Translations under genes and position numbers: made by a program | Shown: one piece after another, positions 24,810 to 50,972 of the stretch | Layout: every line of letters begins with the position of its first letter | Position numbering within the stretch: position 1 is the first letter of the stretch | Notes under the pieces: model-generated | Databases searched by the model: none | Told to the model about the DNA's origin: nothing | Seen by the model: the letters and a program-made list of their open reading frames with translations, nothing else | NCBI GenBank assembly: GCA_003251635.1 | Contig: QKEW01000012.1 | Coordinates: 1-51,332, forward strand | Direction of reading: 5' to 3' | Origin: a bacterium | Lineage (GTDB): Bacteria; Patescibacteriota; Minisyncoccia; Moranbacterales; GWC2-37-73 | DNA: 51,332 nt

Positions 24810-24838
24810 TTGACAAAATGTTTATTTTATGCTAAGAT
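24810..24838 (+). promoter_or_regulatory. Sigma70 promoter with extended -10
   Basis: TTGACA-17 bp-TAAGAT preceded by TGn. Confidence 0.8.
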
Positions 24839-24841
24839 GTT

Positions 24842-24968
24842 AAGTTATTTGAGATAAGCTATGTTCGAGTCGAAGCTTTTCCCTCAAAAGAAAAACTTCG
24901 TTAAAATATAGGTTTCAAATTCTTTGAAAAACAATCTCGTTTGAAAAACTTGTTTTTCGTACGCGATT
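24842..24968 (+). promoter_or_regulatory. Structured leader: hairpin, boxA-like TTCTTTGAAAA (24920-24930), then CUUG-loop hairpin
   Basis: Stem 24848-24919 (TTTGAGAT/GTTTCAAA, CTATGTT/AATATAG, CGAAG/CTTCG). The boxA resembles the Bacillus rrn boxA GTTCTTTGAAAA. Confidence 0.6.
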
Positions 24969-25026
24969 TATATATAAAACGTCTTTATTATCCAATAACA
25001 CAAAACAGGACGAAGGGAGATCAATC

Positions 25027-26394
25027 ATGAAAAAGTTTCTAGTTTATCTGTTGGTTGTTGTGTTAGTTCTGCCCAGCTTTGCTTGGGCGGGGAACGTAGA
25101 AGTTGAAGGCGATGGAAACGCCCTTGGCGTTAACATTGCCAGCGATAATAACAACCGTAACGAAAACAACCTAACGGGAATCAACACCCTTACGGGTACT
25201 GCTACGGGTACGGGTACTGCTACTGCTGGCTCCGATGCCCAAGCGGCTTCAGCCTCAGGTGCCAGTTCAACCTTAGTGAACGAAAACTTGCGCCCCTTTA
25301 CAGAGCTTCAGTATGGGACAAATTTTGTTAACCAAGGCAAGGTAACCAAACATGAAAATCTCTGGGAAATTTATATTCCAGAGCTGTATCGCCAGGGGAT
25401 TTCTTTCGAGGAAGCAAGGAATATGCGGAGCAGATTTAAGTTCTGGCATATATTTACTCCCTGGAAGTGGTTTGAGACTAAGGTCAATATAACCAAGCAT
25501 ATGGATGATGGGTTCGATAGAGAAGTTAGCGCGGCCTATCCAATGACTTATGATCCTGAAAAACATGCTATGCGTGGGGATAAAACAATTATTTCTGGGT
25601 TTGTTCCTGGAAAAGAAAAGTGGCATAACGACAGTTTCTTTGGGGAAGTTTCCTATCAGTGCATGAAAAAAGGTTCTCAGCGGTTCGTTGTCTTAAAAGA
25701 GGAAAGGGAGAACACTATTTCGGATGGTTTTTCTATTAGTCCTGGTGGTTCATCTAGCGCTGTCAATAGCGCTGGGGACAGGGCAGTGGCAGTTGCTGCT
25801 GGTGGTCAAGTTGGAAAAATAGTTACCAGCAGCGAAGAATATACGAATATGAAGTTTCGTTGCATGAACGACGGACCTTTGAATTATTCCGAGCAGGTAG
25901 TGGTCCGGCAGAAAGCCACTCCTCCGGTTGTTCAGCAACCCGAGGCGAAATGTGGTACCGAAAAGGACCTGGCTGATTTAGCTAAGGTCCAAGCTAAGAT
26001 AGACACGTGTTATCCTTATTGTGAAAACAATATGGAAAAACGCTTGGAGGCAGGGAAACTTGCTCTTCAAATCTCTCTCTGCACCGGTAACCTGGCCTAT
26101 TTGGAAGATGCAATTCAGCACTTTCAGATGGCGGAATTGAATTATCACCATGGTGTCAACACCAGAAGTGATAAATCTATCGCCCTCATCGGCGAGGTTG
26201 AATATTGGTTGGCTAGTGCCTTTTTCGAAAGGGACAAGTCAATCTCGGCGTTTTGGATCGCTCCGGAAAAGGTGAGACATGAGAACAAAAAAACCAAGGC
26301 GCATGAGTGGACAAAGACCACTCTGGAGGAGCGCAATGCCATAGAGCAGATGCGCCTAAAACTGGAAAAGTATTCCCAAAGTCTGAAGCCTTAG
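25027..26394 (+). CDS. Secreted hypothetical protein (Asn/Thr/Gly/Ala-rich N-terminus, Cys-containing helical C-terminus)
   Basis: Signal peptide ending AWA; SD AAGGGAG; 455 aa. Confidence 0.8.
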   Translation: MKKFLVYLLVVVLVLPSFAWAGNVEVEGDGNALGVNIASDNNNRNENNLTGINTLTGTATGTGTATAGSDAQAASASGASSTLVNENLRPFTELQYGTNFVNQGKVTKHENLWEIYIPELYRQGISFEEARNMRSRFKFWHIFTPWKWFETKVNITKHMDDGFDREVSAAYPMTYDPEKHAMRGDKTIISGFVPGKEKWHNDSFFGEVSYQCMKKGSQRFVVLKEERENTISDGFSISPGGSSSAVNSAGDRAVAVAAGGQVGKIVTSSEEYTNMKFRCMNDGPLNYSEQVVVRQKATPPVVQQPEAKCGTEKDLADLAKVQAKIDTCYPYCENNMEKRLEAGKLALQISLCTGNLAYLEDAIQHFQMAELNYHHGVNTRSDKSIALIGEVEYWLASAFFERDKSISAFWIAPEKVRHENKKTKAHEWTKTTLEERNAIEQMRLKLEKYSQSLKP

Positions 26395-26406
26395 GAGGTT
26401 TACATC

Positions 26407-27252
26407 ATGAAAAAAATATTACTTTTAACGGCAATTTTTTTTCTTGGGCTAAGCGTGGAAGTATTGGCGCTTAGCTCGGAAGAGGATGTGACGCTTCATG
26501 GCAATGGATCCGATGAAGCTATCATTGCGCAAGCCCAAAGTCGTCAGGTTACCATTGACAATTTTGACGAAGCAATAAGGCGGTCGACCGAGCGATCTTT
26601 GCAGATTGCTCAGGAGGCTGTCAGTGCTTCAAAAAAAGCTGCTGCTGCTGCCAATATGGCAAACAAAGCAGCTAACAAAAATGCAGCACTGGTAACTGAG
26701 TACAGGACCGACAGAGGAAAATTGGTGACAAACATTGAAGCCAATACCAATGCTATGGATGGCCTCAAAACCTCCATCAGCACCCTGGAAACCTCCATCG
26801 GTGGTCTCGAAAACTCCACTTTTCGGTGGGGTATCGGCATCGTTTGCGTTCTTGCTTTTATTTCTGCCGGATTGGCTTTTCTTTACCGAAAAGCCAATCA
26901 CATTGAGGCGAAAATCGATGCGATGCCAGGCGAAATAATCACTGACGTTGCTGCCATAATGGGAACGAACTCTGTTCCTATTAAAGTTGGCAATTTAGGT
27001 GTTTTTGATTATTATTTTGAAAGAAGGGAAGAGGGTGATGGTGACATTTTCGTCACCCTAAAGGTGGATGAAAAAAATCCTTCACAAGGGGTTTACCTGA
27101 CCAGGGATATGAAAACCTTGATCAGGGATGCCAAAACCGTACTACGGCGCCATTTCCTTAGCCATCAATACGATGGCGAGGGAGAATTCAATGCCGCTCA
27201 GCGAGCGGTTATCGAGGGAGCCATTTCAAATGGTACTCTCAAAGAAAGATGA
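26407..27252 (+). CDS. Single-pass membrane protein with extracellular coiled coil
   Basis: Signal peptide, Ala-rich coiled coil, TM WGIGIVCVLAFISAGLAFLY and cytoplasmic domain; SD AGGAGGT. Confidence 0.8.
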   Translation: MKKILLLTAIFFLGLSVEVLALSSEEDVTLHGNGSDEAIIAQAQSRQVTIDNFDEAIRRSTERSLQIAQEAVSASKKAAAAANMANKAANKNAALVTEYRTDRGKLVTNIEANTNAMDGLKTSISTLETSIGGLENSTFRWGIGIVCVLAFISAGLAFLYRKANHIEAKIDAMPGEIITDVAAIMGTNSVPIKVGNLGVFDYYFERREEGDGDIFVTLKVDEKNPSQGVYLTRDMKTLIRDAKTVLRRHFLSHQYDGEGEFNAAQRAVIEGAISNGTLKER

Positions 27253-27267
27253 TGCTAACCTTTTTCC

Positions 27268-27564
27268 TGGGAGCCCGTATTCTAAAGGGTGCGGGCTCCC
27301 ACCCAGTAGCTCGAAACAGAGATTATCTGAGTGAGATCTCTGGGCTCAACCACTTTGCTGTTTGCGGGTGGTGATGATTTTCCTGATTGGGAATCATCAA
27401 TTGCGATATATCTTATTCATGAATTGGTAAGATATATCCGAGTGTAGTACTCAAGGCGTTTTATCCGAATTTGAAAAAAAGCTTCCAGGCTTGAGAGTCT
27501 CAATTGACACTCGCCGGAAGTGAACCTATATAAAAGACCTGATCCAAATGGAGAGGGTCTTTTA
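27268..27564 (+). ncRNA. Candidate structured RNA (serial hairpins ending in a terminator-like stem)
   Basis: About eight abutting stems whose wobble pairs work as G-U only on the + strand; no credible ORF. Confidence 0.55.
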
Positions 27565-27611
27565 AAATTGTTTGAAAATTGAACTTTTAATCTTATTTTA
27601 TTCAATTTTAT

Positions 27612-27648
27612 CCTCACCTTAGCCCTTTCCCTGCTAGGGAGAGGGGGA
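27612..27648 (+). repeat. BoxC-like pyrimidine tract plus hairpin element
   Basis: CCTCACCTTAGCCCTTTCCCTGCTAGGGAGAGGGGG resembles the CCCTCACCCTAACCCTCTCCC...GGGAGAGGG dispersed repeat; single copy in this window. Confidence 0.5.
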
Positions 27649-27718
27649 ATCAGAATTTTTTTGCAAATCCATCGTACTAAAAAACTAAAAACCTATGAGC
27701 TAAAACCTGCCAGACTGC

Positions 27719-27747
27719 TTGACAACTGGCTGATTTTTTGCTACAAT
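27719..27747 (+). promoter_or_regulatory. Sigma70 promoter of the polysaccharide locus
   Basis: TTGACA-17 bp-TACAAT with an extended TG; implies the real start of the next gene lies downstream. Confidence 0.8.
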
Positions 27748-27792
27748 AGAATGTTAAAAAACATTGATTCTAAGCGTTATTTCTTGAATTTA

Positions 27793-28986
27793 ATGAGCGA
27801 AAAAAATCGAAAAAAATTACTCAATTTTCAAAGCCGTTTGCAAAAGCGGATTTTGGTGGTGGGTATAATTTTTACTTTGACTGCCGGCTTTATTTTCCGT
27901 GATGCTTTTAATGAATATGAAGCTCGCATTCAAATGGTAGCTGCCAGCAAGAATGCAGAACTTTCGGATCAGATGGAAGCAGTGTCTGAAAATTTGATTG
28001 AATTTCCCAAGACCTTGGCTTTCTATGAAAGGCTTTTGAAAAATAACCCAAACATTCAAGATGGTTTTGAAGATTTGAGTGCGCGTGAACGCAAAAAACT
28101 TTGGAACGATCAAATTGAAACTTCTGGACGGATTGTTAACAATCGAGCCTGGCTTAGCTTGTCAGTTTTCAGTCGGAAAGCTGCTAACGCCGATGCTTTG
28201 TCTGAAAAAGTGGCTGATAGCTTGATTGAAGTGATGGGAAATTTTTATGACACTGATAAAGATTTGGCTTTGGCGGTTGTAGAAGGCCCGATTGTTTATT
28301 CAGTAAATCGTCATTGGATCAAAGTCGGTTTGCTTTCAATTTTGATCGGATTTTTAGCCTCATTGATTTTGAATTTAATTTTAGAGGGTTGGGAAAAACA
28401 AAATAGAGAATCAAAAAGTTTTTTTCAAAAATCACTTTTGAATTTGCAAGAAAAAATCATTGCCAAAAATTCTTTATCTCAAAATATGGTAGCAACAACC
28501 GACGTACCCTATAGTTTTGATGATCGACAAAAAGCTGAAGAAAAAAACATCCAAACGGATGAGAATTATTTTGCTGACAAAAAAATTGCCGATCAAGGTA
28601 AAAGTGCTGCAGCTCCGGATAATCTGCCAATTTTTGAAGAGATTCCTGGTTTGACCTTTCAAACTGAGCCGATTGTTGAGAAACAAGAAAATATTGAAAT
28701 TGAAAAAGAGGAAAATATCACACCGATCAAAGAAGAATCGGAAATTGAAAAATTGGAAACAAAAGAAGATGTGATGGAGATGCCTAATTTCCAATCCGAA
28801 GAAACTTTTGGTTTGCCGGACAATTTGCCAACGGCACCGGACAGCTTGCTGGGAAATTTGCCGGTGGCAGAGGTCGAAGAAAAAGAGGAGAAGGAACCTG
28901 ATTTTATTGAAATGAAAGACAATGAACCGACAGCTCAGGAAATGAAAGATCGATTGAACAAACTTTTGCGAGGAGATCTGCCCTAG
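27793..28986 (+). CDS. Wzz/CpsC-like polysaccharide co-polymerase with long acidic tail
   Basis: Two TM segments flanking an ~135-aa external domain; Glu-rich tail with PDNLP repeats; first gene of the sugar locus. Confidence 0.55.
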   Translation: MSEKNRKKLLNFQSRLQKRILVVGIIFTLTAGFIFRDAFNEYEARIQMVAASKNAELSDQMEAVSENLIEFPKTLAFYERLLKNNPNIQDGFEDLSARERKKLWNDQIETSGRIVNNRAWLSLSVFSRKAANADALSEKVADSLIEVMGNFYDTDKDLALAVVEGPIVYSVNRHWIKVGLLSILIGFLASLILNLILEGWEKQNRESKSFFQKSLLNLQEKIIAKNSLSQNMVATTDVPYSFDDRQKAEEKNIQTDENYFADKKIADQGKSAAAPDNLPIFEEIPGLTFQTEPIVEKQENIEIEKEENITPIKEESEIEKLETKEDVMEMPNFQSEETFGLPDNLPTAPDSLLGNLPVAEVEEKEEKEPDFIEMKDNEPTAQEMKDRLNKLLRGDLP

Positions 28987-29019
28987 GGATTAGTATTTTT
29001 AATTTTTCTGTTAAAACAG

Positions 29020-30381
29020 ATGGCAAAGAAATATAGTAAAAAATTCTGGTTTATTTTTTGGACCCTTTCAATAATTTTCTTGATTAGTTGGCATTTTTTT
29101 TGGCAATTTCAAAGTCGTGGAATTGGGGCATTGGCTCCAGCTTTGGATTTCGTACCTTTTCTAGGTGAGGAAGGGGAAAAATATCAACAAGCTGCCAAGA
29201 TCGCTGATTATTTTTTGCAAAAAGATGATCAGGAGCGAAATTATTTAATTCTTTTTGAAAACAATCTTGAATTGAGACCAGGCGGTGGTTTTTTGGGCGC
29301 GTTTGCTTTGGTGAAAATAAAAAATGGTCAAATTGTTTCTTTGCAAGTTTTGGACAGTGGCAATTTTGATTGTCAAATTCCAGAAGGAATCGATCCGCCT
29401 TACCCGATGATCAGCAAATTAGGAATTGATTCTTGGAATTTTTCCAATTCCAATTATTCGCCTGACTTTGCTGTTGATGCTCAAAAGGCTATAGAATTTT
29501 ATCACCTAGGCGGTGGCCAAGAAAATTTCGATGGAGTGATTGGAATAACAGCTGATGTTTTGAAATCAGTCCTGAAAATTACCGGGCCGATTCAGTTGGA
29601 AGATTACCCGGGAATTTATGATAGCGAGAATGCGGTGATTACCTTGGAATATCAAGTGGAGCAAGCTTTTGAAAATCAGGGAATTGAACGGAGTGACCGC
29701 AAATCAGTGATTGGGGAATTGGCTAAGGAGTTAAGAGGGGAAGTGGCCAATCTTTCTTTGAGCGGAAAAATGAAATTGGCCAAGATATTGTTGGAAGATT
29801 TGGAGGAAAAAAATATTCAACTTTATTTTTCTCAGGACGAAATGCAAGAAGTGGTGGTTGAGTCAGCTTGGGGTGGTCAAGTCGATCAGAATTGGCAAAA
29901 TGATTTCTTGATGATGGTAGATGCCAATCTGGGGTCTTTCAAAAGCGATTACTACATTGATCGCCAAGGTGAATATTTTGTTGATTTTTCCGGAGAGACT
30001 CCGAAGGCTCGCTTGTTGATTCGCTATCGTCACAATGCTAAGCAAAAAGATTGGATGACTCGGGATTATTATTCTTATTTGCGAGTCTATGTGCCTGAAG
30101 GTGCTTGGCTGGAAAAGTGGTATAATCTAGAAAACATTCGCTTTGGTCAAGAACTGGGCAAAAAATTTTTTGCCGGTGACGTGAATGTGCCAATTGGAGA
30201 AGAAAAGGTTGTCTTGTTGGAATATTCTTTGCCGGAAAACATTTCGGCTGAGAATTACGTTTTAAAGATCCAAAAACAACTGGGAATTTCTCAGCTGCCA
30301 ATTTTGATTCATATCATTGATCAAGATGGCAGTCAGTCAGATGAGGAGGTTTGGGTTAAGGGCGATAGGGTCGTTGAATAG
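29020..30381 (+). CDS. DUF4012-family membrane-anchored protein
   Basis: YLILFENNLELRPGGGFLG, NSNYSPDF, DGVIGI, DANLGSFKSD and YLRVYVPEGA motifs. Confidence 0.8.
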   Translation: MAKKYSKKFWFIFWTLSIIFLISWHFFWQFQSRGIGALAPALDFVPFLGEEGEKYQQAAKIADYFLQKDDQERNYLILFENNLELRPGGGFLGAFALVKIKNGQIVSLQVLDSGNFDCQIPEGIDPPYPMISKLGIDSWNFSNSNYSPDFAVDAQKAIEFYHLGGGQENFDGVIGITADVLKSVLKITGPIQLEDYPGIYDSENAVITLEYQVEQAFENQGIERSDRKSVIGELAKELRGEVANLSLSGKMKLAKILLEDLEEKNIQLYFSQDEMQEVVVESAWGGQVDQNWQNDFLMMVDANLGSFKSDYYIDRQGEYFVDFSGETPKARLLIRYRHNAKQKDWMTRDYYSYLRVYVPEGAWLEKWYNLENIRFGQELGKKFFAGDVNVPIGEEKVVLLEYSLPENISAENYVLKIQKQLGISQLPILIHIIDQDGSQSDEEVWVKGDRVVE

Positions 30382-30426
30382 TTTTTTTGTAAACTCATAA
30401 CTTTAGCGGGAGGAGAGGGTAGGACC

Positions 30427-30726
30427 ATGAACAATACCCTAAAAGTCATATTTTATTTTGATAGCCTAAAGCCATCTCTGGCCAAGGATCTGAGAATTTC
30501 CTTGGGTGCCAAAATCTTTAAAGAAGGTATTTTAAACAGAGACGAGACTTTATTTAGAGCAACATGTGTTCATGTTGATCCTCCTAGTGCTTTCATTGAT
30601 GGGGCTGGTGAAGCACGCAATCTTGCAAAGATGAAGCTGTTGAATGACTTTGTCTTTGGAGATGAACTTGGGTGTGAAATAACCAAAATATTCGATGAGA
30701 AGGGTGTTCTACTAATAGTTGAGTGA
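30427..30726 (+). CDS. Hypothetical protein (ORFan insert)
   Basis: 99 aa; strong SD GGAGG; has its own terminator. Confidence 0.65.
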   Translation: MNNTLKVIFYFDSLKPSLAKDLRISLGAKIFKEGILNRDETLFRATCVHVDPPSAFIDGAGEARNLAKMKLLNDFVFGDELGCEITKIFDEKGVLLIVE

Positions 30727-30740
30727 GCGCCAATTTCTTT

Positions 30741-30776
30741 AAACCGCCGTATTGCAGTTGCAGTGCGGCGGTTTTT
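30741..30776 (+). terminator. Intrinsic terminator
   Basis: AAACCGCCGTATTGC / GCAGTGCGGCGGTTT followed by a T tract. Confidence 0.8.
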
Positions 30777-30832
30777 GCTTTTTATAGGGGCCTGTAGTAA
30801 AATTAAGTACGATTTATTATCAACTCACAAGT

Positions 30833-31378
30833 ATGGAATTTCAAAAAACTACACTGAAAGATGCTTTTTTAGTTAAGTCACAAGTTTTTCAGGATGAGCG
30901 AGGATTTTTTCTGGAAAACTATTCCAAACAAAAATTTCAAGCAGCCGGAATCGAGGTGGATTTTGTGCAAGACAATCATTCTTTGTCGGTCAAAAAAGGA
31001 GTTCTCCGTGGATTGCATTTTCAAAAAGGCAGCGATGCTCAAGCTAAATTGGTACGCGTGACCAAAGGTGCAGTCTATGATGTGATTGTTGATTTACGCA
31101 AGGATTCCCCAACTTTTGGAAAATGGGAAGGGTTCACTTTGACAGCTGAGAATTTTTTGATGCTTTTTGTGCCGCGCGGCTTTGCTCATGGCTTTTGCAC
31201 CCTGGAAGAAAACAGTGAATTTCAATATAAGTGTGATAATTTTTATGTGCCGCAAAGTGAAGGCGGAGTCATTTGGAATGATCCGACTCTAAAAATCGAT
31301 TGGCCAGTTGAAAACCCGATTTTATCAGAAAAAGATCAAAAAAATCCGACCTGGAAAGAATTTGTGCAAAACGTATAG
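30833..31378 (+). CDS. rmlC: dTDP-4-dehydrorhamnose 3,5-epimerase
   Basis: DERGFF, VQDNHSLS, GVLRGLHFQ, DLRKDSPTFG and GFAHGF motifs. Confidence 0.97.
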   Translation: MEFQKTTLKDAFLVKSQVFQDERGFFLENYSKQKFQAAGIEVDFVQDNHSLSVKKGVLRGLHFQKGSDAQAKLVRVTKGAVYDVIVDLRKDSPTFGKWEGFTLTAENFLMLFVPRGFAHGFCTLEENSEFQYKCDNFYVPQSEGGVIWNDPTLKIDWPVENPILSEKDQKNPTWKEFVQNV

Positions 31379-31520
31379 CGCATAACCCATAGCGTAAAAC
31401 GCATAGCGCGTAGCTTATAATGTGGAATATGGAGCGTTTCGTGCTAAATGTCTAGTGCTTTATGATTTATAATCTAACTAAAAGTTGACAACCTAAATAA
31501 TCTAACAACTAAGAGCTACT
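31373..31520. repeat. Degenerate heptamer tandem repeats with an inverted arm
   Basis: GTATAGC GCATAAC CCATAGC GTAAAAC GCATAGC GCGTAGC..., then GCTAAAT/GCTTTAT units and CTAAC/CTAAA units. Confidence 0.6.
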
Positions 31521-31523
31521 TCT

Positions 31524-32528
31524 ATGAAATTATTAGTCACTGGTGGAGCCGGTTTTATTGGTTCCAATTTTATCCACTACATTTTGAAAAAGCATGAAAA
31601 TTGGGAGGTGATCAATTTGGACGCATTAACTTATGCTGGAAATTTGGAGAACCTGAAAAGCTTGGAAAATGATTCACGCCATCAATTTATTAGAGGCGAC
31701 ATTTGTGACGCTAAGCTTGTTAATGGGCTGGTAAAAGAGTGCGATGCCATTGTTCATTTTGCAGCCGAATCGCACGTTGATCGCTCCATTTTGGATCCAG
31801 CTGCTTTCATCAAAACCAATATTGTCGGAACCTACACCTTACTGGAGGCGGCTCGTCAAAATGGTGGAAAAAGATTTCATCATATTTCAACCGATGAAGT
31901 TTTTGGATCTTTGAATTCGGATGAGCCGGCTTTCAGTGAAGAAACAGCTTATGACCCACAAAGTCCTTATAGTGCCGCCAAGGCCTCTTCAGATCATTTG
32001 GTGCGAGCCTATTTTCACACTTTCAATTTGCCGATCACTATTTCTAATTGCTCTAATAATTACGGACCTTTTCATTTTCCGGAAAAATTAATACCTTTGG
32101 CCATTACCAATTTAATGGAGGATAAAAAAATTCCGGTTTATGGTGATGGACTACAGATTCGCGATTGGCTTTTTGTGGAAGATCATTGTGAGGCAATTGA
32201 TTTGATTTTGGAAAAAGGTGAACTGGGTGAAACCTATTGTATTGGAGGCAATTCGGAAAAAACCAACCTTGAGGTTGTTAAGGAGATTCTAGCTATTTTG
32301 AAAAAAGACGAAGATTTGATTGAGTTTGTTAAAGATCGAGCAGGTCATGATCGCCGTTACGCTATTGATGCAACCAAAATCAAAAAGCAGTTGGGTTGGC
32401 AACCCCGAGTTTCTTTTGAGGAAGGTTTGGCGCAAACAATTAAGTGGTTTGAGCAAAACCAAAACTGGTGGCAGAAAATAAAAAGTGGTGAATATCAAAA
32501 ATATTACGAAAAACAGTATAAAAATTAA
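31524..32528 (+). CDS. rmlB: dTDP-glucose 4,6-dehydratase
   Basis: GGAGFIG, HFAAESHVDRSI, STDEVFG, YSAAK and GHDRRY motifs. Confidence 0.97.
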   Translation: MKLLVTGGAGFIGSNFIHYILKKHENWEVINLDALTYAGNLENLKSLENDSRHQFIRGDICDAKLVNGLVKECDAIVHFAAESHVDRSILDPAAFIKTNIVGTYTLLEAARQNGGKRFHHISTDEVFGSLNSDEPAFSEETAYDPQSPYSAAKASSDHLVRAYFHTFNLPITISNCSNNYGPFHFPEKLIPLAITNLMEDKKIPVYGDGLQIRDWLFVEDHCEAIDLILEKGELGETYCIGGNSEKTNLEVVKEILAILKKDEDLIEFVKDRAGHDRRYAIDATKIKKQLGWQPRVSFEEGLAQTIKWFEQNQNWWQKIKSGEYQKYYEKQYKN

Positions 32529-32650
32529 GCCAATTAAAGCAAATTGGGGAGCTAATTTTGGATGAATGGCTTATTGAGGTGATTTTGGCAAAAAATTGGT
32601 TACATGTTAATATCGGAGTGACTGATTAAAATAATTTTTTACTTAAATTA

Positions 32651-33604: not shown

Positions 33605-33691
33605 TATAACAAGAAAAAATGAATTTTGAAAAATTGTGATAAATTCTAAGCCCATATTTGTCAATGTCATTTTATCTATTAATTTAAAAAT

Positions 33692-34972: not shown

Positions 34973-34977
34973 CAACT

Positions 34978-35838: not shown

Positions 35839-35894
35839 TAAAAATTGTTTTTTTGTTTTATAATTTTAACAAAGCAAAATCTTTCTAGTGCGAT

Positions 35895-36722: not shown

Positions 36723-36756
36723 GAGCTTTTAGAAAAAATTTAATTTAAGAAAATTG

Positions 36757-37935: not shown

Positions 37936-37937
37936 AA

Positions 37938-38732: not shown

Positions 38733-38813
38733 TTCCTTGTTTGTTTATTCGTTTATTGGGTGTTATAATTATAAAGTTGGTTTTAATAATAATTTTAATT
38801 TTTGACAAGAAAA

Positions 38814-39680
38814 ATGAAAAAGATCAAGAAGGCTGTGATTGCGGTTGCCGGGTCTGGAACTAGATTATTGCCAGCTACAAAAGCCATGCCCAAGGAAATG
38901 CTTCCGATTGTTGATAAACCGATTATCCAGTTGGTAGTGGAAGAATTGGTGGAGGCCGGGATTGAAGATATTATTTTCGTAACTCGTTGGGATAAAAAAC
39001 CGTTGGAGGACCATTTTGACAGATCTTCTGCTCTGGAGGCTGATTTGCGAAAAAATGGAAAGGATAAATATGCCGATGAAATTGTTAGAATTTCGGAAAT
39101 GGCCAATTTTGTTTATGTTCGTCAAAAAGGCCCATATGGTAATGGAACTCCAGTTCTTTCAGCAGCCAGTTTGGTGGATGATGAACCGTTCGTTTTTGTC
39201 TATGGAGATGATCTGGTAAAATCAAAAGTTTCTTTCACTAAGCAGATGGTGGAGGATTACAATAAAAATGGCCACCCGATTTTCGCTGTACAGGAGGTTC
39301 CGCGTGAGGTTGTCAATCGTTATGGAGTGGTAAAACTTAAGGAAGGCACAGATATTTTGGAGGATGTTGTGGAAAAACCATCAATTGAAGAAGCTCCTTC
39401 TTGTCTGGCTTCTTTCGGAAGAATGATTCTGAATCAAGAAATCATCAATATTCTCAAAAAGACCCCGCTAGGAAAGGGCAATGAATTGTGGATGGTAGAT
39501 GCAATCAGAACCTATGTGAAAAATGGTGGGATAGTAAAGATTAAAGAGCCGAAGGACGGTTATTGGCTGACAACCGGAGACCCCTTGAATTATATGAAAT
39601 CAATTTTAGCCTACGCACTGGAAAGGGAAGATATTAAAGATGAAATAAAAGAGTATATCAATCAACTCTATTGTCAATAA
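38814..39680 (+). CDS. galU: UTP--glucose-1-phosphate uridylyltransferase
   Basis: KAVIAVAGSGTRLLPATKAMPKEMLPIVDKP and VEKP motifs. Confidence 0.92.
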   Translation: MKKIKKAVIAVAGSGTRLLPATKAMPKEMLPIVDKPIIQLVVEELVEAGIEDIIFVTRWDKKPLEDHFDRSSALEADLRKNGKDKYADEIVRISEMANFVYVRQKGPYGNGTPVLSAASLVDDEPFVFVYGDDLVKSKVSFTKQMVEDYNKNGHPIFAVQEVPREVVNRYGVVKLKEGTDILEDVVEKPSIEEAPSCLASFGRMILNQEIINILKKTPLGKGNELWMVDAIRTYVKNGGIVKIKEPKDGYWLTTGDPLNYMKSILAYALEREDIKDEIKEYINQLYCQ

Positions 39681-39710
39681 CTAATATTTAAGGTATAAAA
39701 ATAAAACAAA

Positions 39711-40088
39711 ATGATTCCGGAAAAATTAACTTTAGGTCAAAAAGCGGCCGATTGGATCGCTAGTATTGTGGGAAGTTGGAAATTCGTCATATTTCAATCA
39801 ATAATTCTGATTATTTGGATTATATTGAATGTAATAGCCTTTGTTCAACACTGGGATCCCTATCCGTTCATTTTGTTAAACTTAACCCTAAGCTTTCAGG
39901 CTGCCTATACTGCTCCGATAATTTTGATGAGTCAAAACCGAACCGCCGAAAAAGATCGTCGCAAAGCCAGCGCTGATCTTTATACTGATAAAAAGGCTGA
40001 ACAAGGAATCGAAGAAATTCAATTGCAGATCAAGCACCTCAGTTCTATGCTGGGAGAAATTGCCAGGAATAATAATCAAAAAAAATAG
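39711..40088 (+). CDS. DUF1003-family membrane protein
   Basis: GSWKF and WDPYPFILLNL.LS.QAAY.APIILMSQNR motifs. Confidence 0.9.
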   Translation: MIPEKLTLGQKAADWIASIVGSWKFVIFQSIILIIWIILNVIAFVQHWDPYPFILLNLTLSFQAAYTAPIILMSQNRTAEKDRRKASADLYTDKKAEQGIEEIQLQIKHLSSMLGEIARNNNQKK

Positions 40089-40154
40089 ATATTGCCCATA
40101 GGGTGAAAACTAATAAAAACAAAATAGCTAGTTATTTGATTAAAGAGAGGATGT

Positions 40155-40844
40155 ATGTACTGGATTTATTTAGTTATATTTGTTTTCTTAGTCTTTGTCC
40201 CGGAGATCATCCGGGGTAATTTGGGCGTTTTTGGAGAAGAAACAGTTGAAGAAATCGTTCTTTTGTTTTTAGGAGGAACGATTTTTATTTTTTATTTGAT
40301 AAGAGATAGTCAAATTCAGAAAATTCAAAAAGAACTGGATGAAAAAAGACGTGAAAACAATCGAATGCTCAAAGATTTAACTCAATCCTATTCTTTTATT
40401 GGCGAGATAAATCGTAAATTGGAAATTGCCAAAAATATATTTTTGGGTTTGCCGGAGTGGTCTAAAAAGGGGAGCGGTAACAAGAAAGAATCTTTTGAAT
40501 ATATCATGGCCTCCATAAAAGCCCTTACAAAATCGCAGGACCATTGCTTATTATTTGTCTTTGAAAATCATTTTGAAAAAATCTGGGAACTGAAAAGCAA
40601 TAAGGATTTTGCTTGTAACCCTTTTGAAAAAAAATTATTTGATAAGAATAGACGCTATTATGAAGATGATCAATTTATGACGGTAATCTCGCCGGAAAAT
40701 ATTGAAGGAATCGTTTCTATTATAAAAATTCGCAAAAAAACCCCTCATCAAACATTGGAAGATCCGGATATTCTGAAAGCCTTAGCGACACAGGCCTTAT
40801 TTTTGTTTGTTTTTCTCCAAAAAAACAAAAGATTGAAAAAATAA
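40155..40844 (+). CDS. Membrane protein with two N-terminal TMs, coiled coil and possible GAF-like domain
   Basis: Hydrophobic N-terminus; C-terminal ILKALATQA helix is reminiscent of GAF domain ends. Confidence 0.65.
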   Translation: MYWIYLVIFVFLVFVPEIIRGNLGVFGEETVEEIVLLFLGGTIFIFYLIRDSQIQKIQKELDEKRRENNRMLKDLTQSYSFIGEINRKLEIAKNIFLGLPEWSKKGSGNKKESFEYIMASIKALTKSQDHCLLFVFENHFEKIWELKSNKDFACNPFEKKLFDKNRRYYEDDQFMTVISPENIEGIVSIIKIRKKTPHQTLEDPDILKALATQALFLFVFLQKNKRLKK

Positions 40845-40887
40845 TTAAATATATATATAATCTAAGAGATAATTAATTGCCAACACT

Positions 40888-41322
40888 ATGAAAATTATTT
40901 TATTGCAAGATGTGAAGAAAATTGGGAAAAAGGGGGAAGTGAAAGAGGTTGCCGACGGATATGCGCGAAATTTTCTTTTAGCCAAGAATTTGGCTCAAGT
41001 GGCAACTTCTAGTGCGGTGACTAAGGTTCAAAAGGATCAGCAAAAGAGAACAGATAAAATGAACAAGGAGAAAGCCTTGTATCAAGAAATTGCCGATCAA
41101 TTGCAAGATAAAAGTTTTTTCATTAAGACTAAGTCCAGAAACGGAAAACTTTTTGGATCGGTCACATCCAAAGAGGTTTTAAAGGTTTTAAATGAAAAAG
41201 GTGTAAAAATTAATCAAAATCAAATCCAATTTGATTCAGTCAAGCAATTGGGAAAGAAAAAAGCCAAGGCTATTTTTCCCTTTGGAGTTCAATCTGATTT
41301 TTGGATTGAAATTGGGGAATAG
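40888..41322 (+). CDS. rplI: 50S ribosomal protein L9
   Basis: [27 protein letters not shown] and GKLFGSVT motifs. Confidence 0.97.
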
Positions 41323-41406
41323 AAAACGGGATTTTCAATGTAAATAAATTTAATATAAAAATACCGAATTTTCAAAACATTTTAGTTGGAATTTGGTGAA
41401 AAAACT

Positions 41407-43047
41407 ATGGATAACCGGAAATACATTTTTGTCATGGGAGGAGTGATGAGCGGAGTTGGCAAGGGAATTACAACTTCTTCAATCGGTGCGATCTTGAAGG
41501 CTCGTGGCTATAATGTCACCGCTCTAAAGATTGATCCCTATATCAATGTTGATGCCGGTACCATGAATCCAACTGAACATGGAGAAGTTTTTGTTCTGGA
41601 TGATGGCTATGAATGTGATCAGGATATGGGAAATTATGAACGTTTCATGGAAATCAGTCTGCCTAGTCTTAACTATATGACGACCGGCAGTGTTTATCAG
41701 TCGGTTATCAATAAGGAGCGTAATTTGAAATATAAAGGTAAATGCGTAGAAGTAGTTCCTCACATCCCCTTGGAGGTAATCGAAAGAATAAAAAAAGCCA
41801 GTGAAAAAGCCAAATCAGACATTACTTTGATTGAAATTGGCGGTACAGTCGGTGAATATCAAAACATTCTATTTTTAGAAGCTGCCAGAATGCTAAAGAT
41901 AAAAAATCCGGAAGATGTTTTGTCTGTTTTGGTTAGTTATTTGCCGATTCCGAGCAAGGTTGGGGAAATGAAAACTAAGCCAACCCAATATGCTGTCAGG
42001 ACGCTCAATGGCGCCGGAATTCAGCCGGATTTTATTATCGCTCGCAGCGAAACTTTCCTAGACCAAAAACGCAAAGAAAAACTTTCCATGTTTTGTAACA
42101 TTCCGGAAGAATATGTAATTTCCGCGCCAGATATTGATAGCGTCTATCAAGTGCCGATTAACTATGAACGAGACGATTTGAGTAAGTTGATTTTAAAAAA
42201 ACTGGGATTAAAACAGAAAAAATCCAACCTAAAGCCTTGGCAAGATTTGGTCGATAAGATTAAAAGTGTTAAGGAAAAAATTCGAATCGGAGTGGTTGGA
42301 AAATATTTTGGAACCGGCGATTTTGTTTTGAGTGATGCTTACATTAGTGTTATTGAAGCAATCAAGCATGCTGGGTTCAAGAACGATGTAAAAGTGCAAA
42401 TCGATTGGATCAATAGTGAGCTTTTTGAAAAAGAACCTCATAAAATTGAAATATTGAAAGATTGCGATGGAATTTTGGTGCCAGGCGGATTTGGTGAGCG
42501 GGGAATTGAAGGGAAAATCAAAGCCATTCAATATTGTCGCGAGAATCGGATTCCTTTTTTCGGCCTTTGTTACGGAATGCAATTGGCAGTTATCGAATAT
42601 GCGCGCAACGTCTTAGGCTTGGAAAAAGCCAACACGACCGAAATTGACAAAAAAACTCCTCACCCGGTCATCGACATCATGCCGGAACAAAAAAAGAATT
42701 TGGAGGATAGCAATTTTGGTGCCACCATGCGATTGGGAAGCTACGAAGCCGTTTTGAAAAAAGGTAGCTTGGCTCAGCGTGCTTATGGAAAAGAAAGAAT
42801 TGATGAGCGCCATCGGCATCGTTGGGAGGTTAATCCGCAATATATCAAAGATATTGAAAAAGCGGGATTGGTTTTTTCCGGCAAATCGCCCAATAAAAAA
42901 TTAATGGAAATTATCGAATTGCCAAGTGAAAAACATCCATTTTTCTTGGCAACTCAGTTTCATCCCGAATTTAAATCCGCTCCACTCAAAGCTCATCCGC
43001 TTTTTGTGGAATTCATCAAAGCGGCTAAAGGGAGGCGTAAAGAATAA
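41407..43047 (+). CDS. pyrG: CTP synthase
   Basis: GGVMSGVGKG, DPYINVDAGTM, KTKPTQ, GLCYGMQ, RHRHRWE and QFHPE motifs. Confidence 0.98.
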   Translation: MDNRKYIFVMGGVMSGVGKGITTSSIGAILKARGYNVTALKIDPYINVDAGTMNPTEHGEVFVLDDGYECDQDMGNYERFMEISLPSLNYMTTGSVYQSVINKERNLKYKGKCVEVVPHIPLEVIERIKKASEKAKSDITLIEIGGTVGEYQNILFLEAARMLKIKNPEDVLSVLVSYLPIPSKVGEMKTKPTQYAVRTLNGAGIQPDFIIARSETFLDQKRKEKLSMFCNIPEEYVISAPDIDSVYQVPINYERDDLSKLILKKLGLKQKKSNLKPWQDLVDKIKSVKEKIRIGVVGKYFGTGDFVLSDAYISVIEAIKHAGFKNDVKVQIDWINSELFEKEPHKIEILKDCDGILVPGGFGERGIEGKIKAIQYCRENRIPFFGLCYGMQLAVIEYARNVLGLEKANTTEIDKKTPHPVIDIMPEQKKNLEDSNFGATMRLGSYEAVLKKGSLAQRAYGKERIDERHRHRWEVNPQYIKDIEKAGLVFSGKSPNKKLMEIIELPSEKHPFFLATQFHPEFKSAPLKAHPLFVEFIKAAKGRRKE

Positions 43048-43069
43048 TTAAAAAAACTGCCCTGTAAAA

Positions 43070-43101
43070 CAAAAAGCGATCTATGATTTGATCGCTTTTT
43101 G
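43070..43101. terminator. Bidirectional terminator between pyrG and rpmA
   Basis: CAAAAAGCGATC / GATCGCTTTTTG repeat. Confidence 0.8.
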
Positions 43102-43125
43102 AAATAGTCTTTGTGAAGTTTGGAA

Positions 43126-43509
43126 TTATTTTTTCTTGGTAGTTTTCTTGGTGGCTACAGGTTTTGATTTGCTAGCAACTTTTTTTGTTGCAGTTTTCGT
43201 AACGGTTTTAATAGCAGAGCTTTTCTTGATGATCCCAGCAGTTATATCAACAAATCGACGCTTGACCAGTTTGCCGGTAAAATCTCGTACCATTTTTTTG
43301 GAAAACTGCACGTAACCGTCTGCCAAAGCGAAAAGAGTGTCATCACCGCCACGAGCTACATTTTTTCCAGGGTGGAATTTTGTGCCGCGTTGACGTATAA
43401 TGATATTGCCTTTCTGAACTTTTTGATTGCCGAAAATTTTTACTCCGAGACGTTTGGAGATGGAATCGCGTCCCAGTTGGGTAGATCCGCCGGCTTTACG
43501 ATGGGCCAT
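43126..43509 (-). CDS. rpmA: 50S ribosomal protein L27 with Lys/Thr/Ala-rich C-terminal extension
   Basis: [25 protein letters not shown] and DDTLFAL motifs. Confidence 0.96.
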
Positions 43510-43679
43510 ATTTTTCAAATAAAAACGCCAAACTGAGAAACAGTTTTTCGTTTGTTTGCTAATTTATTTATAATTTCAAAGCCTTTAAATTTTCGGGTTA
43601 AATCGCGTCCATAACCGCAAGATAACCTTGGCTTAAGCGAAAATTCAACGACTTAGAGATTATAACAAATAATCGGTTT

Positions 43680-44111
43680 ATGTCAACCAAGTTTCGCCAA
43701 TTTTGGCAAAAAAATGAGACAAAAATTGTACTTTTGATTGGCTTTTCGTTGATTTCAGTCATATCCTTTGAATTCGGGGTACTGAAAGGCTCAAAATGGC
43801 AGTCTAAGCCCCTGGTTATTGAAAGCCTGGCTTCGGAGGCTGCGCAAGCCAAAACTGCTTCTAGTGAGCCCTCTAAGATTCCAGGAGTCAATTCGGCCAC
43901 TCCAAACTTGCCTACGGAAGTAAAAAATGTTAAAAATAACGATTCAAGGCCGAATTCGAATCAATGTCCCTATGTTGGCAGTAAAAATTCAACCAAATTT
44001 TATCTGGCCAATTGTTCTTGGGCTAAACAAATTAAATCGGAAAATTTAGTTTGTTTTCAAACCGCCGAAGAAGCCTTGGCTCAGGGCCGAACCGAAAGTA
44101 AATGTAACTAA
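43680..44111 (+). CDS. Membrane-anchored protein with C-terminal Ada metal-binding-like domain
   Basis: TM segment, Pro/Ser linker, then YVGSKNSTKFY...C...F.T.EEA.AQG. Confidence 0.7.
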   Translation: MSTKFRQFWQKNETKIVLLIGFSLISVISFEFGVLKGSKWQSKPLVIESLASEAAQAKTASSEPSKIPGVNSATPNLPTEVKNVKNNDSRPNSNQCPYVGSKNSTKFYLANCSWAKQIKSENLVCFQTAEEALAQGRTESKCN

Positions 44112-44125
44112 CTTTAAAAGCAACC

Positions 44126-44572
44126 ATGAAGAATAAATTTGTAATAGCTGCTAAGGCCATTATCAAAAAAGAAAATAAATTTTTGATTTTACATCGTAGC
44201 GAAACACATGAATATAAGCCGGGCGAAGCTGATTTTCCAGGCGGAAAATTGGAATTTGGAGAAACTATGGAAATCGGACTACTGCGCGAAATCAAGGAAG
44301 AATCCAATCTGGAAGTTAAAATTATCCGACCAGTGCGTTCCTGGAGTTTTTTGCTGGACGAATTTACTCAAATTGTCGGCATAACCTATCTGACTCACTA
44401 TCACTCCGGTCAAATTGAGCTTAGCTATGAACATAACCAGTTTAAATGGCTGACCTTGGAAGAAATTCTGGATGCTCAAGATTTTCCTGAATGGATTAGG
44501 AAAGATTTTCAAGCTATGAATAGCGGGGTTTGCCTCAACCAAAGTCCAGTGTTAGATTTAAGAAGGTATTAA
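44126..44572 (+). CDS. NUDIX hydrolase (MutT-like)
   Basis: FPGGKLEFGETMEIGLLREIKEESNL Nudix box and LSYEH. Confidence 0.88.
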   Translation: MKNKFVIAAKAIIKKENKFLILHRSETHEYKPGEADFPGGKLEFGETMEIGLLREIKEESNLEVKIIRPVRSWSFLLDEFTQIVGITYLTHYHSGQIELSYEHNQFKWLTLEEILDAQDFPEWIRKDFQAMNSGVCLNQSPVLDLRRY

Positions 44573-44590
44573 AAAATTAAAATTAGAAAA

Positions 44591-45286
44591 ATGGGAAAAG
44601 AAAAAATTTTTGTGATTTCTTTGGGCGGTTCCTTGATTGTGCCTGAAGAAGTCGATTGTGAATTTATGCGTCGATTTAAAAAATTAATTGAAAAGCAAAT
44701 CGAACAAGGAAAGAGATTTATTATTGTGACGGGCGGAGGGAAGTTGGCACGCAAATACATTGAAGCTGGGAGCAAAATTGACGATATGAACAACGATGAC
44801 AAAGATTGGCTGGGTATCCATGCAACTCGGATGAACGCTCATTTTGTTCGCACAATCTTTCGAAAACACGCCTATCCTATTATCAACAAAAACCCCTATG
44901 ACTTGGAAGGTTTTTTGAAGGCTAAAGAATCAATCTTGGTAGCTTCCGGCTATCGACCGGGCAATTCAACTGACTATATCGCTGTCTTGATTGGAAAACA
45001 GTTCGGAGCCAAAAAAGTAGTCAATCTTTCCAATATTGATTATGTTTGTGACAGCGATCCGCGCCAAAATCCCGAAGCTAAAAAAATCGAGCATATTTCT
45101 TGGAAAGATTTTCGAAAAATGATCGGGGACCATTGGGATCCGGGTGCTAATGTGCCATTTGATCCGGTAGCTTCCAAGTTGGCCGAGCAGGAAAAAATGG
45201 AAGTGGCCATCATGAATGGTCAAAAATTAGAAAATTTGGAAAAATATTTGGAAGGTAAAGAATTTCAGGGAACTACTATTAACTAA
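44591..45286 (+). CDS. pyrH: Uridylate kinase (archaeal-type)
   Basis: SLGGS, GGGKLARKY, GIHATRMNA, PGNSTDY and PFDPVA motifs. Confidence 0.92.
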   Translation: MGKEKIFVISLGGSLIVPEEVDCEFMRRFKKLIEKQIEQGKRFIIVTGGGKLARKYIEAGSKIDDMNNDDKDWLGIHATRMNAHFVRTIFRKHAYPIINKNPYDLEGFLKAKESILVASGYRPGNSTDYIAVLIGKQFGAKKVVNLSNIDYVCDSDPRQNPEAKKIEHISWKDFRKMIGDHWDPGANVPFDPVASKLAEQEKMEVAIMNGQKLENLEKYLEGKEFQGTTIN

Positions 45287-45309
45287 GTTTTGGAAAAAAT
45301 TGGACAAAG

Positions 45310-45350
45310 AAAAAACAGCGCCAAGTCGTTAACCCGAACGCTGTTTTTTT
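45310..45350. terminator. Bidirectional terminator
   Basis: AAAAAACAGCG / CGCTGTTTTTT repeat. Confidence 0.7.
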
Positions 45351-45499
45351 ACGTTGACTAGCATGAAAAAATTGCTAGCTAGCCAAATGAAGGCCAAAGC
45401 CCGGAACCAGTTGCTGAGTACATCTATTCCCAACAGCTGATGGCCAAAATAAAGAATAATTATCATGGTCAGCATTATAAAATACAGAAAAGTTTTCAT
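45329..45499 (-). CDS. Small two-TM membrane protein (56 aa; absent from the ORF track)
   Basis: Hand translation gives MKTFLYFIMLTMIIILYFGHQLLGIDVLSNWFRALAFIWLASNFFMLVNVKKQRSG. SD AAGGA/AGGA; starts 11 bp after the upstream ORF. Confidence 0.6.
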   Translation of the reverse strand: MKTFLYFIMLTMIIILYFGHQLLGIDVLSNWFRALAFIWLASNFFMLVNVKKQRSG

Positions 45500-45510
45500 C
45501 CTGCTATCCT

Positions 45511-45720
45511 TTAGCCATTTTTTATTTTTTTCAACATTTCTCCCAAAATTAAAACCAAAGTCGGAATTGCTAAAAATAAAAATATTATAGATCCTATTCC
45601 CATATGTGCACTCCCGCTAGTAGATAAAAATGGCAAAAGACCCAATGTGCCAGCCAGAATAACTAGCATAATAGGTTCTATGTTATTATACTCAAAAGTT
45701 TTATCTTCAATTTCTTTCAT
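45511..45720 (-). CDS. Small two-TM membrane protein
   Basis: 69 aa with two hydrophobic segments and a basic tail; SD GAGAGGT. Confidence 0.65.
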   Translation of the reverse strand: MKEIEDKTFEYNNIEPIMLVILAGTLGLLPFLSTSGSAHMGIGSIIFLFLAIPTLVLILGEMLKKIKNG

Positions 45721-45760
45721 AAAACCTCTCTTTCTGGCTTTTCGCCAATTAATTTATGAG

Positions 45761-45838
45761 TTGTTAAAGAAAAATGTCACCCCAAACGCAATAGAGAATT
45801 TCAAAGTTCCATATTCCGCTTGAGATAACAAATAACTT
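45761..45838 (-). promoter_or_regulatory. Structured leader: 14-bp hairpin followed by boxA-like TTCTTTAACAA
   Basis: Minus-strand TGTTATCTCAAGCG / CGTTTGGGGTGACA pairs fully with four G-U. The boxA (45761-45771) resembles E. coli rrn GCTCTTTAACAA. Confidence 0.65.
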
Positions 45839-45841
45839 GCT

Positions 45842-45870
45842 AGTATAACCTATTTTTTCTTAACTGTCAA
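45842..45870 (-). promoter_or_regulatory. Sigma70 promoter overlapping the 3' end of the nuclease gene
   Basis: TTGACA-17 bp-TATACT. Confidence 0.75.
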
Positions 45871-49722: not shown

Positions 49723-49969
49723 AAAAAACCTTCCTTCCTTTTTGTATGGTTTTAAAATTGCTAATTTACTAACAAAATATAACTAAAAAGTAACTTTAAT
49801 TTGTAACATTTAACCATAAAAAAGTCAACCTTTAGGCAGGTATTATTTAATATTTATCCCTTATTTAAGCCAAAAAACAAGGCTAAAAATTGCGTTCTAA
49901 GCGATTTGAAATCTCTTTTGATACACCTATACCACTGAGATTTGGCAAAATTACTTTTCTAGAGAAAAC

Positions 49970-50852: not shown

Positions 50853-50972
50853 GTGTCGTCACCTTTCTTCTCTTATAGAAAATTTTTTGTTAAATAACTA
50901 GGGTACTAATTTATTTCACTTCCCTTTATGAAAGTAAAGAATTTTTGTGTCGCACAATCTAGTAATGCTCAC

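Follow-up and report, generated by a model that had tools for sequence, protein, structure and literature searches.

The complex that boxA RNA forms with the Nus factors is understood almost only from Escherichia coli, its stated job being to keep Rho off rRNA, and in the nut sites of phage lambda boxA is followed by the boxB hairpin and bound by N together with Nus factors. The available parts of two further sources describe a 5' hairpin followed directly by boxA in the rrn operons of Bacillus subtilis and boxA upstream of CRISPR arrays (both PMC13753749), and boxA in the mRNA leaders of gamma-proteobacteria, where it is established for suhB, rpsJ, prsA and genes for ParE-like toxins and where, at E. 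coli suhB, it represses translation via the whole Nus complex (PMC5725501). BoxA on mRNA leaders and the hairpin-then-boxA arrangement that rrn operons have in B. subtilis are already known. Here we consider a stretch of 51,332 nt (the window) from a bacterium of the order Moranbacterales, which consists of ultra-small bacteria within the candidate phyla radiation, in which two promoter-proximal leaders, leader 1 on the plus strand and leader 2 on the minus strand, place a hairpin before a boxA-like word. Leader 1 is a conserved, single-copy structured 5' leader RNA of the order, and the boxA word is a general, strand-specific, promoter-proximal element of the same order. The window is the initial 51 kb of contig C5 of a genome (G000) of 0.91 Mb in 18 contigs, 99.9% complete by markers and with about 38% G+C.

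An earlier note on this DNA had given both leaders one layout, namely promoter, 3 nt, AAGTTATTTG, hairpin, word, second hairpin and Shine-Dalgarno (SD) sequence, and this was borne out base for base. The shared AAGTTATTTG stands 3 nt past the -10 at 24842-24851 (+) in leader 1 and at 45838-45829 (-) in leader 2, and a word lies at the foot of each stem (TTCTTTGAAAA at 24920-24930 (+); TTCTTTAACAA at 45771-45761 (-)). The published boxA consensus, GYTCTTTAANA, is gamma-proteobacterial according to the available part of its source (PMC5725501), and the scans made here allowed R at position 8 (GYTCTTTRANA). Against this consensus with R, the post-hairpin words ATTCTTTGAAA of leader 1 and TTTCTTTAACA of leader 2 each match at 10/11, and neither they nor the start-site words GTTATTTGAGA and GTTATTTGTTA match exactly. 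Both words lie on the transcribed strand downstream of the promoter and are unpaired in the centroid folds. The parts of leader 1 are as follows.

24810-25026, plus strand: leader 1 as a whole, read directly.
24810..24838, plus strand: promoter, with TTGACA at 24810-24815, 17 nt, and TAAGAT at 24833-24838 as an extended -10 (TGC-TAAGAT).
24842..24854, plus strand: start-site element AAGTTATTTGAGA, within which GTTATTTGAGA is a 10/11 match to GYTCTTTRANA.
24859..24911, plus strand: conserved hairpin, long and imperfect, with 5' arm CTATGTTCGAGTCGAAGC and 3' arm CTTCGTTAAAATATAG.
24919..24936, plus strand: boxA-like word ATTCTTTGAAAAACAATC, unpaired and directly 3' of the hairpin, the orthologue of the family's YTTGAMAA-nn-GAAT element.
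24933..24968, plus strand: second hairpin, weak and A-U-rich, without a T-run and not kept in relatives.
25012-25019, plus strand: SD sequence GAAGGGAG, with the ATG at 25027.
25012..26394, plus strand: SD sequence, then the open reading frame (ORF) coding for a 455-aa protein that carries a signal peptide and belongs to no Pfam or NCBIfam family.

In G000, outer pairs lengthen the conserved hairpin to 24847-24921. The corresponding parts of leader 2 are these.

45870-45721, minus strand: leader 2 as a whole, read directly.
45842..45870, minus strand: promoter, with TTGACA at 45870-45865, 17 nt, and TATACT at 45847-45842.
45826..45838, minus strand: start-site element AAGTTATTTGTTA, within which GTTATTTGTTA is a 9/11 match to the boxA consensus.
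45775..45830, minus strand: hairpin with a G-U-rich outer stem of 13-14 bp.
45759..45772, minus strand: boxA-like word TTTCTTTAACAACT, a 10/11 match that doubles as the U-rich tail of the hairpin.
45511..45748, minus strand: small hairpin (45748-45734), SD sequence and 69-aa ORF (45720-45511, ATG at 45720) of a membrane-like protein.

The -35 of leader 2 sits in the final Leu-Thr codons of a PD-(D/E)XK nuclease gene. When folding was compared with that of shuffled leaders (200 shuffles each), leader 2 gave z -4.77, with 0/200 shuffles folding as well, and its many G-U pairs fit the minus strand alone; for leader 1, energy by itself makes a weaker case (z -1.89, 9/200 shuffles). Over the whole window, Rfam at gathering score gave 0 matches.

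The two genes had been taken for unrelated ORFans. This holds for the 69-aa protein behind leader 2, without a homologue in 32 genomes of the family, but not for the 455-aa protein behind leader 1, which has homologues in 16/32. A BLAST-type DNA search with both leaders against 40 relatives matched only promoter or coding pieces. The upstream regions of the 455-aa homologues hold a TGCTAnnnT, an (A)GTTCT-type start, a hairpin and then the word YTTGAMAA-nn-GAATAGG; the TGCTAnnnT promoter precedes all orthologous copies, and columns 1-8 of the leader-1 alignments (A1/A2) read nAGTTCTn in relatives. Eighteen such leaders were extracted (17 loci and that of G003, whose homologue was found via the promoter and has a sortase-like gene upstream, as in G000), of which 17 were aligned, G001 being omitted. 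On this alignment (MAFFT), RNAalifold gave 14 pairs, 9 of them with compensatory changes, and the hairpin has a conserved base (5' TATnTTTnAATCGG, 3' CCGTTAAAATATAG) below a variable apex. A covariance model, R1, searched in 150 genomes of the order, found one copy per genome in 18 (f1 11/20, f9 4/20, f10 2/5); 9 of the matched sequences lie outside the model-building set, and two further families were reached. In alignment A2, which consists of 26 leader-1 family sequences fitted to R1 and so favours its structure, 91.1% of the cells at the 14 pairs are paired and 10/14 pairs have changed on both sides; such both-side changes fill 41 cells, against 12.7 +/- 3.0 in shuffles (0/500 reach that number) and at most 9 in slid-partner controls, and the MAFFT alignment agrees in covariation. 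The covariation among copies that the earlier note had looked to is thus present for leader 1. The word is conserved as well: its TT and AA are invariant in 26/26 leaders, with GAAT two bases further on. Leader 1, and leader 1 only, belongs to R1 by homology, compensatory changes and fixed genomic context, and the leader-1 RNA makes up a new family of structured RNAs, well supported and without a match to any Rfam model.

The word of this family can be compared with the boxA of the order's own rRNA genes. The 16S (C18:51543-53075) and 23S (C9:32732-35800) rRNA genes of G000 are unlinked, each with its own promoter and boxA-like word. One word is conserved in all 16 16S leaders (G000 and 15 relatives), approximately 170-400 nt upstream of the gene and past a conserved hairpin, with the consensus ~AGAAC(T)TTGAAAA-n-TGAATA and its G invariant in 16/16; the 16S leaders thus have the boxB-boxA order, hairpin before boxA, of leaders 1 and 2. 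A 21-nt rrn boxA profile was built from the 16S leaders of the 15 relatives only, G000 being left out; the best scores of 206 G000 leaders set its thresholds, 12.1 at the 99th percentile and 8.3 at the 95th. On this profile, which is independent of R1, the post-hairpin word is the best site in 23/25 leader-1 copies from genomes other than G000, of which 7/25 score at least 12.1 and 10/25 at least 8.3. The family word shares its register and its 3' extension (nn-GAAT) with the 16S-leader boxA of the order, and the G000 16S leader is among the five best R1 matches in its own genome, weakly (E 6.7).

Some observations on these rrn sites and on the profile stand apart from the comparison. The hairpin of the order's 16S leaders (G000 C18 ~53290-53420 (-); loci L014-L028) is a conserved ACATCC...GGATGT with a T-run, terminator-looking, some 40-60 nt before boxA, and several leaders have a further conserved word, TTGAAAATTCGGGTG, ahead. 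Over G000, the top match of the rrn profile (C10:3263, 21.1 bits) falls within coding DNA in antisense orientation and was put down to chance. Among the best matches outside rRNA are TGAACTTTAACAACATAAGGA at C16:74899 (+) (17.9 bits), which abuts the SD sequence of a small ORF, and AGTAAATTAACAACTGAATAT at C9:58559 (+) (16.2 bits), which lies in a leader just past a TATAAT.

Promoter patterns were scanned in 151 genomes of the order, with the reversed pattern, or the same promoter and the reverse-complemented word, as controls. A sigma-70 promoter followed after 3-33 nt by GYTCTTTRANA gave 126 matches in 84/151 genomes; reversing the pattern left 9, and joining this promoter to the reverse-complemented word also left 9, in 8 genomes. 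Across the order, boxA-consensus words are thus tied to promoters strongly and in one orientation (126 vs 9); in G000 no enrichment of the word is seen. At the 30 loci kept, what lies downstream is an enzyme gene, a regulator gene, a gene for a membrane or secreted protein, or a non-coding RNA. In one relative (G002, L097 1137-1511 (-)) an RNase P RNA (RF00010, 122.5 bits, Rfam-confirmed) starts 12 nt past GTTCTTTGAGA, so that a stable-RNA precursor carries the word and the word is not a translation signal. Because the genes behind it are so diverse, RNase P RNA among them, neither is it a mark of accessory cassettes, the class of genes for which the earlier note had seen a dedicated device; the leader-1 gene is itself a conserved neighbour of a sortase gene. 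Among the loci of eight relatives submitted to Rfam, 1/3 suspected RNase P RNAs was confirmed, and the other two share its 5' sequence and fall below the Rfam score. In three families (L079, L086 and L094) a promoter and boxA word are followed by a conserved structured RNA (…TTTGCCATGGCAGAAAGG … CTGCTGTGGCAAA…), and L075/L076 hold a second, different structured RNA; both are below the Rfam gathering score.

The same scans bear on AAGTTA, which had been counted as part of the leader signal. The sequence TTGAC, spacer, TANNNT, 3 nt, AAGTTA has 161 matches in 79/151 genomes, compared with 17 when the pattern is reversed (both sums our own). If any distance from 0 to 9 nt is allowed, 51 genomes yield 163 matches, of which 58 stand at exactly 3 nt, about 5x the mean of the other distances (these 58 being drawn from the same genomes in the fixed-distance scan). 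The genes behind AAGTTA promoters are varied and often code for small membrane proteins. A spacing of 3 nt places the G of AAGTTA six bases past the -10, and in 19 rows of the promoter-consensus list (counted by eye) the G of GTTCTTT has the same place, the word standing 5 nt past the -10; many rows with longer gaps have GTT or GTC at that start position too. AAGTTA is therefore the start-site context of promoters throughout the order, its G in line with the G of the boxA-like words at transcript starts, and not a separate signal.

The leader-1 family has a sigma-70 promoter with an extended -10 and a transcript beginning in the conserved boxA-like (A)GTT(C/A) element; the long co-varying hairpin comes next, directly past it the unpaired boxA (G-n-n-Y-Y-T-T-R-A-M-A-A-n-n-GAAT), then the ribosome-binding site, so that hairpin and boxA stand in the order known from rrn leaders. 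In a Nus-type mechanism, NusB-S10 would be recruited by this boxA RNA to the elongating polymerase, along with NusA and NusG, and the complex so modified may act on hairpin-dependent pausing, intrinsic termination, RNA folding or, as at E. coli suhB, on how ribosomes reach the start site. According to the available part of PMC13753749, intrinsic termination is likewise counteracted by the rrn complex. In favour of the rrn-style element that had been proposed are the fit of the relatives' word to the rrn profile, the conserved hairpin, the strand-specific tie of boxA words to promoters across the order, and the presence in G000 of NusB, NusA, NusG and S10 (NusE), all over curated cut-offs. NusB and S10 are thus encoded, which the earlier note had wanted confirmed, and Rho is not: the Rho_RNA_bind domain was not found in G000, where the Rho model TIGR00767 hits only ATP-synthase subunits (43 bits vs a cut-off of 509). 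In a survey of 81 genomes of the order, the Rho RNA-binding domain occurs in 1/81, a genome of 250 contigs with 5% contamination that is probably contaminated. The Inositol_P family, to which SuhB-type proteins belong, gave no match in G000.

Several findings weigh against this reading, besides the fitting of A2 to its own model. With Rho absent and a SuhB-type protein not found, the classical anti-Rho function cannot apply and the Rho-protection and SuhB part of rrn-type antitermination is missing, so that the action of the complex would shift to pausing, intrinsic termination, folding or ribosome access. The rrn boxA of the organism had been expected to be the same word, and in G000 it differs (16S leader AGAAACTTGAAAACAGAAC, 23S leader CACTTGAAAATTAAATAG); a match to the rrn word is seen in the orthologous leaders of relatives and not in the G000 copies. 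Neither post-hairpin word of G000 has the G found without exception at the 16 rrn boxA sites, and where the rrn words of the order carry AA, at positions 2-3, the promoter-proximal words carry TT. On the rrn profile the two window words score -9.1 (leader 1) and -5.4 (leader 2), so that all they have in common with the rrn boxA is the core CTTTRAMAA; they are not among the matches of the profile scan of G000. In leader 1 the word of G000 retains CTTTGAAAA and has lost the G and part of the 3' extension, as a degenerate copy. In leader 2 the word coincides with the U-rich tail of the hairpin, and R1 has no match there at E up to 10, leader 2 not being a member. The word is not enriched in G000 leaders, where no exact consensus lies within 33 nt of a promoter, and its core TTGACA/TTGAAA resembles a -35 hexamer. 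Judging from sequence comparison, we consider the loading of NusB-S10 by the word of the leader-1 family evenly balanced between true and false, and for the degenerate G000 copy less probable than that.

The explanation that survives best beside the Nus-type one is that the hairpin is the functional part, as a 5' stabiliser, an RNase III site or the site of an unknown protein, with the U-rich word as its single-stranded flank or an attenuator tail, like boxA only in being rich in U and A. The covariation does sit in the hairpin, the words of G000 fail the rrn profile, ATTTTTCTTT, next after the stem of leader 2, satisfies the T-tail rule applied in the terminator scan, and a G000 terminator at C10:3427 is followed by TTCTTTAAAAA by chance. 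The simple terminator scan, however, flags neither the leader 1 nor the leader 2 hairpin, and in relatives the 3' arm of the leader-1 hairpin is followed by an A-rich sequence and not by a T-run. Variable linkers, even an extra hairpin, separate stem and word in relatives, and yet the word is kept beyond any U-run (TT and AA in 26/26, and GAAT) and fits a profile derived independently from rRNA leaders. We therefore regard a function of the hairpin without the word as unlikely.

For leader 2 the rival to be weighed is coincidence, with strong promoters of the usual start context in both leaders, a hairpin that each happens to have and an A/T-rich word arisen by chance. Since the 69-aa protein has no homologue, leader 2 is without comparative support, and its DNA matched nothing in the 40 relatives beyond the last codons of the nuclease; it has no R1 match, and the order often has AAGTTA at a spacing of 3 nt. 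Words of 10/11 occur at 0.054 per 100 nt of G000 leader, and 2 leaders carry two; of the 33 copies of TTCTTTRAMAA on both strands of the genome, 28 are coding and 5 intergenic, and only 4 lie in sense leaders, 2 of these being the window's. On the other side, two of the 107 strong promoters have the same ten bases equally far past the -10, for which a rough estimate of our own gives a chance of ~0.01, the word abuts the stem base in both leaders, and G011, in the corresponding place past the nuclease gene, has a correctly spaced -10 and then, 5 nt on, ATTCTTTAAAAAC, ahead of a different small ORF. Coincidence thus appears quite unlikely. Leader 2 has the same grammar as leader 1 and is lineage-specific; because the word is the U-rich tail of its hairpin, it may also be an attenuator, and we consider the Nus-type reading of leader 2 less likely than not. 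The last codons of the nuclease gene (45850-45894 (-); also L007, L008 and L010) are conserved and contain TTGACA, which serves as the -35 for different small downstream ORFs in G000 and G011, and the position past this gene looks like an expression slot that is used again for varying cargo. In the apical loop of leader 2 (45809-45799 (-)) stands GAACTTTGAAA, which is the core of the rrn boxA in this order.

That the word instead acts as DNA, either as the -35 hexamer for a second promoter or as an operator, at or past the start site, for a transcription factor found lineage-wide, is improbable: TTGACA lies within the family consensus, promoter-like sites can be found (TTGAAA-16-TATTTT-type sites, GTGACA-18-TAAATT in leader 2, TATATA 17 nt past the word in G003) and 19 rows have the word exactly 5 nt past the -10, as would suit a DNA element anchored to the promoter, but no consistent -10 appears at 16-18 nt in 17 aligned leaders or 16 rrn leaders (by eye), TTAACA, TTAAAA or TTTCCA stands in many copies, neither the conserved GTTCTTT on the 5' side nor GAAT on the 3' side falls within a -35, the word is found from 5 to >300 nt from the promoter, and its orientation bias is 126 to 9.

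Statistics within G000 alone are poor, and support for the layout comes from the relatives; in this genome two of the outcomes that the earlier note had named as refuting its proposal, no enrichment of the word and a different rrn boxA, come close to applying. In 74 kb of G000 leaders there are 40 sense and 25 antisense words of at least 10/11, a mild excess only; AAGTTA as a 6-mer occurs 54 times in sense and 32 times in antisense against 28.5 expected, too weak for an argument, and position-specific composition past 107 G000 promoters gave no clear signal. The other G000 leaders that hold the word (C11:9502, C13:42050, C16:170318) do not show the layout. Two further leaders of the window had been brought into the comparison.

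49787..49828, minus strand: leader 3, with TTGACT, 17 nt, TACAAA, 3 nt and AAGTTACTTT; start-site context only.
50888..51004, minus strand: a fourth leader, with TTGCCA, 17 nt, TATAAT and, ~75 nt later, GTTATTTAACA, 36 nt before the ATG at 50852.

Leader 3, which the earlier note had listed as lacking a clear boxA, shares its promoter and AAGTTAC context with leaders 1 and 2 and nothing else; it has no structure (z +1.30) and no boxA-like word above 8/11. Of the weaker words listed, GTTATTTAACA at 50898-50888 (-), ahead of the 50852 ORF, is a 10/11 match within a leader, and GTTCTTTAAAAA at 8321 is the start codon and first codons of an alpha/beta-hydrolase ORF; neither adds anything to the case. 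The window site at 8309-8321 (-) is one of only two exact GYTCTTTAANA in the genome, overlapping the hydrolase start (ATG TTC TTT AAA A), and may be chance or a translation-level site.

Leader 1 lies in a cell-surface neighbourhood, which also includes a 231-aa protein weakly like sortase-dependent surface proteins.

23902-24759, upstream of leader 1: sortase gene, with a terminator between it and leader 1.
26407-27252, plus strand: 281-aa ORF downstream of the 455-aa ORF, in no family.

Past the 281-aa ORF, an ORF-free tail of 466 nt (27253-27718 (+)) folds strongly (z -7.11, 0/100 shuffles) into successive G+C-rich hairpins, of which two look like terminators, and holds TTTGAAAATTGAAC, which resembles the order's rrn boxA; it has no Rfam match.

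Compared with lambda nut, the leaders described here likewise combine boxA and hairpin in a promoter-proximal leader, in the reversed order (hairpin first), and the element of leader 1 is chromosomal and kept with a cellular gene; no N-like protein was seen, and none was searched for. With the rrn leader site leader 1 shares the order of its parts (promoter, hairpin, unpaired boxA), as in the B. subtilis layout given in the available part of PMC13753749; in register and 3' extension the family word agrees with the boxA in 16S leaders of the order, and G000 likewise encodes NusA, NusB, NusG and S10. Unlike the rrn site, leader 1 precedes a protein-coding gene, has a gene-specific hairpin of >50 nt and differs at positions 2-3, and the Rho and SuhB-type protein of the rrn-type setting are lacking here. 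The gamma-proteobacterial mRNA BoxA, as far as the available text of PMC5725501 goes, is likewise a consensus word between the promoter and start codon of ordinary genes, few per genome, and acts with Rho and SuhB, both missing here, to repress translation. The order differs further in that many words are placed right where the transcript begins (19 rows, 5 nt past the -10), that none was seen at Nus-factor genes (the upstream region of nusB alone being read), and that one family has a co-varying hairpin before the word. The boxA of CRISPR arrays also lies outside rRNA and accompanies polymerase through a long untranslated RNA, its role in the portion of the source at hand being protection from Rho, which is lacking here; the window leaders precede translated genes.

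No description of boxA in bacteria of the candidate phyla radiation was found in the literature searched, subscription journals not being covered. New here are the lineage, the setting free of Rho and SuhB, the frequency of the word, its 5'-terminal placing and its presence before stable RNAs, and also a co-varying, gene-specific hairpin-boxA leader without an Rfam match. Among the sequencing runs, no RNA data set is listed.

A wider reading is that, in an order that has lost Rho and SuhB, the boxA/Nus module has been generalised from rRNA to a common 5'-end tag of many mRNAs and stable RNAs, lying at their first transcribed base or close to it, NusB-S10 becoming a general device of elongation, folding or translation gating. 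From the distribution of the words we consider this conceivable though doubtful, and equally so that some genes would add a gene-specific co-varying hairpin and that the tagged RNAs would include the RNase P RNA precursor and a structured RNA. The order keeps NusB despite the occurrence of Rho in 1/81 genomes, and boxA words are ~14x commoner in sense than in antisense past its promoters. If the words bind NusB-S10, the lineage would be a natural test of what the complex does without Rho, be it in intrinsic termination, pausing, folding or the control of translation, and, if this is true, the words would offer a way of finding highly or specially expressed genes in uncultured organisms.

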